Assembly: GCF_013167455.1 (NCBI RefSeq)
Contig: NZ_CP038328.1
From: Escherichia coli O157:H7
GTDB taxonomy: Bacteria; Pseudomonadota; Gammaproteobacteria; Enterobacterales; Enterobacteriaceae
Reading direction: 5' to 3' (one strand)
DNA length: 64,000 nt
The translations under genes were made by a program, and so were the position numbers. Position 1 is the first letter of the stretch, and each line of letters starts with the position of its first letter. Below, piece by piece: positions 4,568-6,906 of the stretch. Below the pieces are notes generated by a model. It was given only the letters and a program-made list of their open reading frames with translations, was not told where the DNA came from and ran no database searches.

Positions 4568-5155
4568 TCATTGGCGCACCTCCTGCGGCGGTTCTGGTAG
4601 CGGCATCCAGTCGGTTACATTGCGGCTCTGTGTTTCGAAAAATTCATCACCATTACGGACTACATCAAAAAACTCACCGTCTCGATATTGCGCATAAAGA
4701 ACGAATGCGCCATCACATAAAATAATTACGTGCTGACCATCATCCGGCATTCGCTCACTACAGCTTATCCAACCATCCGGAGTTACCGGATAGTTGGTTG
4801 ACGTTTCCGAGATTTCCCGAAAATTATTGGTTGACGAACCCTTATTTTCCCGAAAGTTTCCAGCCTGAAGCATGGCGGCGCGGTGACACCAGATAATCCA
4901 GCCAAGCGCCATATCCCATACCATGTAATCTCTATCGCCATTTTTTGCTCTGCGGCGATCTACAGATTCTCCGAAACGCTTCTCCATAAATAATTCATAG
5001 GCTGCTCGTTCATCCGATACTGCTGCCAGTGATGCCAGCGCAATCCGTGCCAGCTCTTCCGCTTCTTCTGCTGGAAGCACAACGTTGCTACCCGGTCCGT
5101 ATGTTTCGCGCCAATGCTGGATTGTCAGCAGTCGATCTTTGGTAATAGTGGTCAT
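4568..5155 (-). CDS. Prophage protein with C-terminal DUF551-like domain
   Basis: 195 aa; C-terminal WISCSERMPDDGQHVIILCDG...WMPLPEPP resembles DUF551 of Eaa-type phage proteins. Confidence 0.5.
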   Translation of the reverse strand: MTTITKDRLLTIQHWRETYGPGSNVVLPAEEAEELARIALASLAAVSDERAAYELFMEKRFGESVDRRRAKNGDRDYMVWDMALGWIIWCHRAAMLQAGNFRENKGSSTNNFREISETSTNYPVTPDGWISCSERMPDDGQHVIILCDGAFVLYAQYRDGEFFDVVRNGDEFFETQSRNVTDWMPLPEPPQEVRQ

Positions 5156-5157
5156 AG

Positions 5158-5349
5158 CTATTTCACCTTAATCTCAACATTTCGCAGCTTTAGCTCTACT
5201 GGCATGTCTGACTTTCCTGTTAATGCTAATGCGAGATTTTCTGGAGTAATGAGAGCAGTTATTGTTTTCCCCATCGCCAGACGAATAATCATTCGTATTT
5301 CGCGATCGTCACATGCTCCTGGTCGAACAATTGATATTTGTCCGTTCAT
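5158..5349 (-). CDS. Hypothetical small protein (63 aa)
   Basis: ORF-track frame in a tightly packed co-directional gene string. Confidence 0.4.
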   Translation of the reverse strand: MNGQISIVRPGACDDREIRMIIRLAMGKTITALITPENLALALTGKSDMPVELKLRNVEIKVK

Positions 5350-5350
5350 C

Positions 5351-5788
5351 TCACTCTCCTTTGATGCGAATGCCAGCGACGCGTAATGCGTGTTCTAGGT
5401 CAATCAGGTAAAGCCAACTGCCATTTTCTTTAGGTATCATGACATGTCGCTCATCTGCATTTATCGGGTGTCCATATCGAAGGTCGTAGCGAGTCGGTAA
5501 TTGAACTTCCCGCGCTTCCAGTTCAGCAATACGCTTGCTCCCATCAGAGATAACGCCTTCGTAATACTCACGCTGCTCGTTGAGTTGTGATTTTGCTTCT
5601 TCCAGTCCATCCAGCAAATCAGCGATAATATCCGCTTCCCGATGACGGATGTGACGCTTAAACGCAGCAAGAGCCGCATCACAATCCCGTTCAGCATTTG
5701 GGCTGTCCGGGGTAGCCTGATACCACGCCAGCGTCGATTGATAGTTTTGTGCTGCCTCACGCAGTGCCTGATAGTCAATCTTGCCCAC
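5351..5788 (-). CDS. Hypothetical protein, coiled-coil (Ea22-like?)
   Basis: 145 aa; ORF-track frame, co-directional; stop/start juxtaposed with neighbours. Confidence 0.5.
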   Translation of the reverse strand: MGKIDYQALREAAQNYQSTLAWYQATPDSPNAERDCDAALAAFKRHIRHREADIIADLLDGLEEAKSQLNEQREYYEGVISDGSKRIAELEAREVQLPTRYDLRYGHPINADERHVMIPKENGSWLYLIDLEHALRVAGIRIKGE

Positions 5789-6116
5789 TGGCTGCCTCCT
5801 TTGCCGGGATTTCTAACTTTTGAGTGGTTGTATCAAATTCAAACAACTTAACCACGTCATCAAACAGGACATAATCACCATCAGGATCTTCAGTCATATC
5901 AGCGCCACAATCCTGACCGCACGAGTCGCAACCTCCCATATCAAGCTCGTATCGCTTCAGGTTCGCGATATTTGATAAATTCAGCGCCAGTATAGCCAGA
6001 TCATTAACCTCGTCTGCGATATACCCTGCACCATGTCCATACATTTCAATGCGGGATATGATTTCTTCTACACGTTGTTTTGTGATCGTCATTTTTCTCT
6101 TCACTCCGATATACAA
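5775..6116 (-). CDS. Hypothetical protein (start uncertain)
   Basis: 113-aa ORF; upstream part overlaps the 6046-6363 gene, so the real start is probably internal (for example MYGHGAGY). Confidence 0.35.
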   Translation of the reverse strand: MYIGVKRKMTITKQRVEEIISRIEMYGHGAGYIADEVNDLAILALNLSNIANLKRYELDMGGCDSCGQDCGADMTEDPDGDYVLFDDVVKLFEFDTTTQKLEIPAKEAASGQD

Positions 6117-6363
6117 GGATTACTACACCCCCTCTGCTGATTGCGCGAGCTGGATCCCCTGGTTCCATGCCGTCAATTCCGAAGGCTTCGAAAAATGCAT
6201 CCATTGCCTTCTGGCGTTGCTCCTGCTTACGGCGTTTATTCCATTTTTTCATGAACAACAGTGACAGCCATCGTCCGCTGCAGAACATAATGTAGAAATA
6301 ACCAAGAAGTGCCAGGCCGGCGTTCAGGGCCATATCAATCGTTATCGCCGGGTCAATATTCAC
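6046..6363 (-). CDS. Hypothetical small membrane protein
   Basis: 105 aa; N-terminal hydrophobic helix (ALNAGLALLGYFYIMF), then a basic stretch. Confidence 0.4.
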   Translation of the reverse strand: MNIDPAITIDMALNAGLALLGYFYIMFCSGRWLSLLFMKKWNKRRKQEQRQKAMDAFFEAFGIDGMEPGDPARAISRGGVVILVYRSEEKNDDHKTTCRRNHIPH

Positions 6364-6655
6364 TGCCCACCTCCTGAAAAATCACCGCATGGCCCGGTTT
6401 CTCCTCCAGTGCCAGCTCAGCCCCTGCACCTGCCGACTGCTGCCAGCCTTTCAGCATGTAAACCGCATCCACGCAACGGAGCATTGCCATGCAAATATCC
6501 ATGTAGTGTGGCTGAGTCAGCCCGTCCGGAAGTACTGCCGGGTTTAAAACGGTATGCCCTTCCCGTTTCAGCACCTCTTCCGTTTTGTGAAATGCCTCGC
6601 GGTTAAAATTTTCATATCCCGTCATCGGACCGGCGATATAAACCCTCACCCTCAC
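6353..6655 (-). CDS. DUF4406-like / nucleoside 2-deoxyribosyltransferase-like protein
   Basis: 100 aa; N-terminal VYIAGPMTG motif is characteristic of the deoxyribosyltransferase-like fold. Confidence 0.55.
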   Translation of the reverse strand: MRVRVYIAGPMTGYENFNREAFHKTEEVLKREGHTVLNPAVLPDGLTQPHYMDICMAMLRCVDAVYMLKGWQQSAGAGAELALEEKPGHAVIFQEVGSEY

Positions 6656-6906
6656 TCCTGAACCCTCCTGTCGAAATAAACGTAGTTATTCACTGCGCCC
6701 AACTTCATCCCAAACTTTTCGGCAATTTCCCGTCGGGGTACACCACGCTGATGCAGTTGCCACGCCAGCTCAATATCACGCTGTGAACATTTGGCTGACT
6801 GGTGATAATCACCCCGTAACATCATGCTGATACCCAGTTCCCGCGCTTTCGTCCTGACGGCTGACTCACTACGGCCAATCAGATAACCGATGCTTTCGAC
6901 TCTCAT
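6652..6906 (-). CDS. Small putative DNA-binding protein (HTH)
   Basis: About 84 aa from MRVESIGYLIGRSESAVRTKARELGIS... and REIAEKFGMKLGAVNNYV; start chosen to avoid overlap with the upstream gene. Confidence 0.4.
   Translation of the reverse strand: MRVESIGYLIGRSESAVRTKARELGISMMLRGDYHQSAKCSQRDIELAWQLHQRGVPRREIAEKFGMKLGAVNNYVYFDRRVQE

Follow-up and report, generated by a model that had tools for sequence, protein, structure and literature searches.

Seven small genes beside potC in Escherichia coli O157:H7, a putative ea-type cargo of a lambdoid prophage slot

The window analyzed is a stretch of 64,000 nucleotides (nt) from Escherichia coli O157:H7 (contig NZ_CP038328.1), which is matched at 100% identity by annotated O157:H7 chromosomes. 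The subject of this work is a string of small genes at positions 4568-6906 of the window, which RefSeq places, in strain TR01, within a lambdoid prophage adjoining potC. This range holds seven open reading frames (ORFs), all on the minus strand, in agreement with the RefSeq annotation of the window-identical records. An earlier reading made from the sequence alone had counted eight ORFs and had used the DUF551 gene as the boundary of the string. The DUF551 gene (4568-5155) is in fact one of the seven, and the number of eight is reached only with the DUF1627 gene (6966-7682), which lies outside the range. The end at 6906 also clips the helix-turn-helix (HTH) gene. Its start is most likely the GTG at 6969 (105 amino acids, aa) and not the ATG at 6906 (84 aa), because the former is the RefSeq call, overlaps the DUF1627 stop codon in a GTGA and agrees with a phrog_323 alignment that begins at residue 5. 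A start at 6906 would cost the protein 21 residues.

In the order of the minus strand, the block consists of the genes for the HTH protein (6652-6969), a DUF4406 protein (6353-6655), a DUF4752 protein (6046-6363), a 105-aa protein named here p105 (5775-6092), an Ead/Ea22-like protein (5351-5788), a 63-aa protein named p63 (5158-5349) and the DUF551 protein. The co-directional, end-to-end or overlapping packing described earlier is borne out by the junction coordinates and by the RefSeq annotation. The DUF1627/HTH and HTH/DUF4406 junctions are both GTGA overlaps of 4 nt, and longer overlaps are found between DUF4406 and DUF4752 (11 nt), DUF4752 and p105 (47 nt) and p105 and the Ea22-like gene (14 nt). 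The last two junctions are gaps of 1 nt (Ea22-like/p63) and 2 nt (p63/DUF551). Plus-strand antisense ORFs within the block had no family support and were disregarded.

All seven ORFs match PHROG families (E values from 1.8e-24 to 2.5e-66), and four of them, i.e., DUF551, Ead_Ea22, DUF4752 and DUF4406, also exceed the Pfam gathering score. A clear Shine-Dalgarno sequence precedes six of the seven starts. The ratio of nonsynonymous to synonymous substitution rates (dN/dS, Nei-Gojobori) lies between 0.15 and 0.69, thus below 1, in all genes with a suitable homologue; the Ea22-like gene had none and is left out of this comparison. Based on these family matches, Shine-Dalgarno sequences and dN/dS values, the ORFs are regarded as genuine genes and not as products of chance, and the block as seven intact genes (eight with DUF1627) under purifying selection. 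The sequence-only reading had considered none of them assignable. This does not hold at the level of families, where four Pfam and seven PHROG assignments are available, and it stands at the level of function.

The 2.9-kb region is identical (100%) in many complete O157:H7 chromosomes. At least 80% of the block is carried by 286 genomes, and fragments of it are present in 3215 of 5426 genomes.

The comparison of the block across prophages, which the earlier reading had called for, was anchored on DUF1627 and included this locus and five E. coli prophages (KGu016, NZRM4165, 10153, E597 and FORC_043). The DUF1627 protein (238 aa, minus strand, Pfam PF07789 with E 6.8e-82, a RefSeq coding sequence [CDS], dN/dS 0.24) is encoded between the HTH gene and the replication gene P, and it is the conserved upstream anchor in all six loci. 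The flanks are common to the six loci as well, with replication genes and DUF1627 on the one side and varying combinations of Hok/Gef, DUF968, RusA, and Q or DUF1133 on the other. The cargo between them is swapped, with genes for DUF977, a 93-aa DNA-binding protein, DUF7167, DUF4014, HNH, KilA-N and a ParDE toxin-antitoxin pair among its contents. Since the five other prophages share these flanks but differ in cargo, the block is interpreted as the cargo of a variable accessory-gene slot between the replication module and the hok/sok, DUF968 and RusA region. A small DNA-binding protein is encoded by the first cargo gene in all six loci. In four of them DUF4406 comes second, and the two genes overlap by 4 nt in every case.

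The block had been described as a nin region. In position this is correct, as it lies between P and the RusA/Q region, but no Nin family is found among the Pfam or PHROG matches of the seven ORFs. The same families recur elsewhere in other arrangements. Phage PhiR49_2 has a DUF4752-p105-Ea22 block between xis and cI, Uetakevirus PAS61 has Ea22 and p63 after P, and an Edwardsiella prophage has Ead_Ea22, DUF4406 and DUF4752 in the interval from the repressor to int. In a Vibrio prophage DUF4406 adjoins the integrase. Because the early-left arm of PhiR49_2 and of the Edwardsiella prophage is occupied by the same families, the cargo is read as a portable pool of mosaic accessory genes of the "ea/exo-xis" type in a nin-equivalent position. 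Ea22 is an early, pro-lysogenic and mosaic protein, and one Ea22 variant of Shiga toxin (Stx) phages carries DUF551 (PMC10834534).

Concerning transcription, a sigma-70 promoter similar to pR (TTGACA-18-TAATAT, 10/12) lies on the minus strand at 10036-10065, upstream of the cro-like gene. It is the sole strong minus-strand promoter match within 2300-10500, and promoter counts in the region do not exceed those of shuffled sequences. The promoter overlaps a 7-bp palindromic hairpin (10054-10038). Within 4568-6969 there is no minus-strand promoter-like site and a single, weak terminator-like hairpin on this strand (6281-6264); a strong terminator hairpin is located after hok (3878-3861). Since the genes overlap or abut and have neither a promoter of their own nor a convincing terminator, the block probably belongs to the rightward early transcript that starts at the pR-type promoter, with partial translational coupling. 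No own promoter and terminator flank the genes, and the block does not have the appearance of a moron with its own signals.

The DUF4406 protein (100 aa, minus strand) matches PF14359 with 115.1 bits (gathering score 22) over residues 4-92 and also matches phrog_355. The fold resembling nucleoside 2-deoxyribosyltransferases (NDTs) that had been noticed from its motif is supported by structure prediction. The AlphaFold2 (AF2) model has a mean predicted local distance difference test score (pLDDT) of 87 and a predicted TM-score (pTM) of 0.81. Its Foldseek matches in the PDB (2a0k, 6evs, 9da6 and 8qhr) have a probability of 1.0 and TM-scores of 0.69-0.76 on the query (TMq), and they represent NDTs, human DNPH1 and MilB. 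The protein stops after its fourth strand (about residue 93), and of each target of 119-165 aa only about half is covered (TM-scores on the target, TMt, 0.42-0.60).

Among 30 DUF4406 homologues with 55-88% identity, the invariant residues include Y6, A8, P10, M11, G13, N18, R19, D53, S74, G76 and E80. The catalytic residues of DNPH1 are Y24, D80 and E104. In a local alignment with human DNPH1, the sequence of which was verified against the PDB, Y6, D53, S74 and E80 of DUF4406 pair with Y24, D80, S98 and E104, respectively. The pairwise score is by itself non-significant (z ~1.7), and the register is backed by the order of the secondary structures. Searches of the PDB by sequence, either with the single sequence or with a profile of 30 sequences, gave chance matches only. 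Because the sequence comparisons with DNPH1 are non-significant, the catalytic assignment rests on the fold and the motif register.

In a viral structure library, the closest relatives of DUF4406 are phage "deoxyribosyltransferases," several of which are fused to dATP/dGTP diphosphohydrolase domains, and the PHROG annotation relates its relatives to MazG-like pyrophosphatases. The family is widespread in the genomes of virulent and temperate phages, fused to nucleotide-pool enzymes. The predicted structure suggests, with about even odds, that, while the phage replicates, DUF4406 acts on the nucleotide pool as a minimal four-strand nucleotide N-glycosidase or transferase. The recurrent second position in the slot and the fusions to dATP/dGTP pyrophosphohydrolases in other phages are in line with such a role.

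The same fold could also be taken as a sign that the block contains prophage genes for defence, exclusion or toxicity which help the lysogen, with DUF4406 as an effector that depletes NAD+ or nucleotides and DUF4752 as its membrane partner. An NDT-like effector of retron Ec86 does deplete NAD+ (PMC13276650). No reverse transcriptase or noncoding RNA is located near the block, though, the Rfam matches in the prophage part of the window being sok and STnc100 only. The slot holds ParDE toxin-antitoxin and KilA-N genes in other prophages, and hok/sok lies directly downstream of the block. Here, none of the 5027 models of PADLOC-DB 2.0 is matched by any ORF at E values up to 0.01, no ORF has a match in NCBIfam, and the block has no promoter from which its genes could be expressed while the lysogen is repressed. 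The wide occurrence of DUF4406 in virulent and temperate phages, fused to nucleotide-pool enzymes, also speaks against this explanation, which is considered very unlikely.

The p105 protein (105 aa, minus strand, isoelectric point [pI] 4.1, net charge -14) has no Pfam family and matches phrog_3126 with an E value of 2.5e-66. Its relatives form 107 representative clusters in an exhaustive search. They share the core R-(Y/F)-(D/E)-L-D-M-x-x-CDSCGQDCGADM-x-E-D-x-DG-(E/D)-YVL, with C55, D56, C62, A64, M66 and G72 as invariant residues. The domain is the N-terminal module of many mosaic phage proteins of 200-365 aa. Recurrent "RAAMLQG" linkers connect it to different C-termini, among them DUF551-like "DGWISCSERMP" ends, a PF04447 dATP/dGTP pyrophosphohydrolase (P0280) and Ead_Ea22 (P0241).

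The p105 gene is also present in virulent Salmonella phages of Skatevirus, beside an "eae" gene, with about 80% identity and a dN/dS of 0.17 at a dS of 0.94. In detail, the identity is 73% to the copy of LPST10 (L009, Skatevirus, 3501-3848) and 79-86% to the copies of other phages of Skatevirus size. This level of identity between temperate and virulent phages and the low dN/dS argue for strong selection on a portable function, and indicate that p105 is exchanged horizontally as a strongly selected accessory module. The AF2 model built on a 64-sequence alignment reached a pLDDT of only 66.7, Foldseek found nothing in the PDB, and no fold is claimed. A metal-binding knuckle or a protein-binding adaptor would be speculation.

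The DUF551 protein (195 aa, acidic, net charge -11, minus strand) carries PF04448 at residues 128-191 (E 4.5e-21, 75.9 bits against a gathering score of 22) and matches phrog_60, with a dN/dS of 0.69. Its N-terminus is a diverged p105 module (32% identity over 81 aa, BLASTP E 3e-6) in which the Cys motif has been lost. The linker between this module and DUF551 contains an imperfect 33-nt tandem duplication (4794-4858, 75% identity), which encodes a repeated "NFRE...STN" segment. In the K-12 prophage CPS-53, the DUF551 protein YfdS contributes to the effect of multicopy yfdQRS on the initiation of replication (PMC4776307).

The earlier reading had suggested functions in anti-defence or host takeover; one or more of the small proteins would then inhibit host immunity. 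For instance, p105 (-14) and the DUF551 protein (-11) could act as mimics of DNA or proteins, and DUF4406, the NDT-like fold of which acts on nucleotides, could break down a nucleotide that serves as an immune signal, or replenish or drain a nucleotide pool. A variable slot with conserved flanks is the typical setting of counter-defence genes, and the roughly 80% identity of p105 between lambdoid and virulent Skatevirus genomes at a dN/dS of 0.17 fits a portable and selected function. On the other hand, for none of the ORFs is there positive evidence of such a role, p105 has neither a confident fold nor a structural match, and the literature consulted contained no link between DUF4406, DUF4752, DUF551 or Ea22 and anti-defence. 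The sole tested function of a relative, that of Ea22, concerns the lysis-lysogeny decision. An anti-defence role of the block is unlikely on this balance.

A more specific form of this idea is that two of the families hide a new counter-defence or host-manipulation activity. The target destroyed by DUF4406 would be a host signal derived from a nucleotide, or a nucleotide that is modified or damaged, and the CDSCGQDCGADM domain of p105 would serve as a shared targeting or inhibitor module for shuffled C-terminal effectors (DUF551, pyrophosphohydrolase, Ea22). This is a long shot. If DUF4406 or p105 did act on host immunity or nucleotide signalling, a function would be gained for families found in thousands of enterobacterial prophages.

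The HTH protein (105 aa, basic, pI 10, minus strand) is a RefSeq CDS with a dN/dS of 0.36. It matches phrog_323, a "transcriptional regulator" family, with an E value of 1.8e-24. Two HTH-like repeats can be recognized by eye, and Sigma70_r4_2, HTH_68 and HTH_23 are matched below the Pfam thresholds. Thus the earlier designation as an HTH protein is in accordance with both family searches.

The DUF4752 protein (105 aa, minus strand, PF15944 with E 7.5e-39 and 132.1 bits against a gathering score of 27, dN/dS 0.40) has a homologue in Edwardsiella (E 7e-15). It begins with a hydrophobic segment (Kyte-Doolittle 1.54-1.80 in three homologues), followed by a stretch rich in Lys and Arg and by a small C-terminal domain. 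The protein is probably anchored in the membrane, and the conserved N-terminal segment makes the membrane peptide proposed from sequence a plausible anchor.

The Ead/Ea22-like protein (145 aa, minus strand) matches PF13935 with 51.4 bits (gathering score 27) at residues 3-65 and also matches phrog_250. Positions 2-79 of the 139 of the profile are covered, which correspond to the N-terminal segment and the coiled coil; the C-terminal domain is unrelated. No PDB sequence up to an E value of 10, including the C-terminal domain of lambda Ea22, was matched except for chance coiled-coil hits. A marginal Pfam match to the N-terminal domain of MucB_RseB (residues 65-116), with 23.6 bits at a gathering threshold of 22.3, extends over some 50 residues of coiled coil and was treated as spurious. 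RefSeq calls a related protein of the strain 10153 prophage "RseB domain-containing," which is probably a coiled-coil artefact propagating into annotation.

The smallest protein of the block, p63 (63 aa, minus strand), matches phrog_1222 (E 1e-40) and has a dN/dS of 0.16. Its homologue in PAS61 is 97% identical and is located directly after Ea22, so that p63 follows an Ea22-type gene both there and in the block. An identity with P22 Eai was rejected (BLASTP against the Eai-family neighbor in Edwardsiella, E 1.1), and the 63-aa ORF at the equivalent place of PhiR49_2 is unrelated (21% identity).

The prophage is arranged on the minus strand as a YdaS-like HTH gene, a YdaT gene, a DnaT-like O gene, a lambda-type P gene, DUF1627 and the block. 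Its immunity region (9276-10609) is of the Rac type and comprises racR (10133-10609, plus strand), the divergent YdaS-like HTH gene (9685-10008, minus strand) and the YdaT-family gene (9276-9701, minus strand). Downstream of the DUF551 gene, the minus strand continues with a 34-aa ORF, hokD/sok, a 92-aa ORF, DUF968, a truncated RusA, a truncated DUF6645 gene and the lysis genes. The RusA gene (2204-2437, minus strand) lacks the sequence for its C-terminus and adjoins the DUF6645 gene (907-2208, minus strand), which lacks that for its N-terminus. Both of them and the exonuclease are pseudogenes in the RefSeq annotation. No Q gene is annotated in the prophage by RefSeq, whereas related prophages carry Q or DUF1133 at this place, and the late-gene activator appears to have been lost by a deletion at 907-2437. 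The two truncations and the missing Q annotation are the grounds on which the prophage is judged defective. The potC gene is a recognized site of O157 prophages in the literature. An identity with Sp4 is disfavored by the lambda-P-type loader, and as a Sakai or EDL933 prophage name was not confirmed, none is used.

Taken together, the block is best explained, with a probability of about 0.6, as accessory cargo in a slot of a defective lambdoid prophage with Rac-type immunity beside potC of O157:H7. The genes would be silent in the lysogen. After derepression the pR-type promoter (about 10050) would drive their delayed-early transcription, translation would in part be coupled, and their products would act as dispensable modulators and not as core functions. 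The 105-aa HTH protein would bind DNA. DUF4406 would cleave a nucleotide N-glycosidic bond through Glu80, with Tyr6 and Asp53, and in this way tune or sanitize the nucleotide pool during phage replication. DUF4752 would be a small membrane-anchored protein. The p105, Ea22-like and DUF551 proteins, as acidic modular proteins, would probably have host or phage proteins as binding partners and shift the lysis-lysogeny or cell-cycle state, as is reported for Ea22 of lambda and Stx phages.

Several points weigh against this reading. The profile of DUF4406 gave a non-significant hhalign comparison with human DNPH1. The protein is also without the C-terminal 30-60 residues of NDT and DNPH1, so that a C-terminal segment serving the active or phosphate site of the neighboring subunit is missing from it. 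Moreover, the O157 copy carries the substitutions R78G, A84E and L87P at conserved or nearly invariant positions. At these sites it has G78, E84 and P87 in place of the R/K, A and L of the family (A and L are present in at least 90% of the aligned homologues), and the three substitutions closely flank the catalytic Glu80. The dN/dS of DUF4406 is 0.58 against the closest relative and 0.15-0.20 against others, and this copy may be drifting under relaxed constraint. The model of p105 is of low confidence. The transfer of a pro-lysogenic role to the Ea22-like protein is weak, since the C-terminal domain is unrelated to that of lambda Ea22. Co-transcription and coupling are derived from sequence only. 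Finally, as the prophage is defective, the current function of the block in its O157:H7 host is uncertain.

In another explanation, the genes are functionless passengers of a decaying cryptic prophage, inactive in the O157:H7 host. The pseudogenes of RusA, DUF6645 and the exonuclease, the lack of an annotated Q, the three atypical substitutions of DUF4406 and the dN/dS values of DUF4406 (0.58 against the closest relative) and DUF551 (0.69) are in line with such a remnant. So is the relative in KGu016, in which DUF4752 is frameshifted and the Ea22-like gene truncated. The O157 prophage pool is largely defective, but its defective members can still be induced, excised, packaged and transferred (PMC2669165). 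In the block itself, none of the seven ORFs is disrupted and hundreds of O157:H7 genomes carry them in identical form, which clonal descent could explain, and the dN/dS is below 1 in every gene compared. A remnant devoid of function is therefore held to be improbable.

With regard to novelty, the sequence is already present in hundreds of annotated O157:H7 genomes and every ORF belongs to a catalogued family. It is an ordinary string of accessory genes with no evidence of defence or anti-defence action. The main yield lies in a revised number of genes and a revised HTH start, the classification of the cargo as ea-type and not Nin, the structural assignment of DUF4406 with a predicted catalytic triad, and the description of p105 as a conserved N-terminal module of mosaic phage proteins that is also found in virulent phages. 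The locus may serve as a worked example of the post-replication slot of Rac/Qin-type lambdoid prophages as a cargo hotspot of shuffled "ea-type" modules.

Close to the downstream end of the block, at 3861-4271 of the minus strand, there is a complete type I toxin-antitoxin locus, hok/sok. It is composed of the hokD CDS (3947-4102, minus strand) and the sok antitoxin (4097-4271, minus strand, Rfam match of 114 bits). Of the five related prophages inspected, four likewise have a Hok/Gef gene where the cargo slot ends on the right. The hypothetical ORF of 34 aa (4348-4452, minus strand), a RefSeq call located between DUF551 and hok/sok, is very hydrophobic (Kyte-Doolittle 2.7) and has the strong Shine-Dalgarno sequence AAGGAGG. 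PHROG, Pfam and PADLOC gave no match for it, and nothing corresponding is annotated in the five related loci. It may encode a small membrane peptide or have been called spuriously.

At gathering thresholds, Rfam contains no RNA family inside 4568-6969. The small RNA (sRNA) STnc100 (307-473, minus strand, 101.6 bits against a gathering score of 47) lies close to the lysis genes and falls within a CDS annotated as DUF826 (270-539). According to a 2026 preprint, STnc100 is related to the prophage PasD sRNAs. The presence of Pas sRNA genes in the block was rejected, as the preprint cites DUF1627 as a neighborhood marker only and the Pas genes lie near lysis genes. The remainder of the window is core E. 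coli chromosome (potC, potD, cobB, nagK and the lol genes onward), in which Rfam matches the SraB sRNA and the 5′ untranslated region element of rne (49421-49589 and 51439-51775).

Regarding known systems, DUF4406 shares with the NDT-like effector of retron Ec86 (Retron-Eco1) the broad NDT-like superfamily, and it would likewise act on a nucleotide cofactor. The block differs in having no reverse transcriptase or multicopy single-stranded DNA partner and no PADLOC match, and in being a phage operon and not a defence island. DNPH1/Rcl, the NDTs and MilB/BlsM share the predicted fold, with the invariant Tyr, Asp and Glu of DUF4406 placed at the secondary-structure positions of Y24, D80 and E104 of DNPH1. 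The differences are the short length of DUF4406 (100 aa, without the C-terminal strand and helix that complete the dimeric active site), the absence of significant sequence similarity and the three atypical substitutions beside the catalytic Glu.

YfdS of CPS-53 in E. coli K-12 resembles the DUF551 protein in its C-terminal DUF551 domain and in being an accessory protein of a cryptic prophage. It differs in its N-terminal part, where the protein of the block has the p105-like module, and its phenotypes (H2O2 tolerance and the contribution to the inhibition of initiation by yfdQRS) cannot be transferred to this protein.

The lambda nin region (ninA-ninI, from P to Q) is similar in position, in the packing by start and stop overlaps and in the presumed read-through from pR. 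As no ORF of the block belongs to any Nin family, the resemblance is positional only. The exo-xis region of lambda and Stx phages and the "ea" region of P22 offer the comparison in content. The block comes after the replication genes of the rightward operon and does not lie between xis and exo, as it does in lambda and Stx phages, and the C-terminal domain of its Ea22-like protein is unrelated to the solved one of lambda Ea22. In common with these regions, it contains an Ead/Ea22-family gene (PF13935) and consists of small, packed and domain-shuffled early genes of a dispensable kind, with DUF551 as a portable C-terminal domain.

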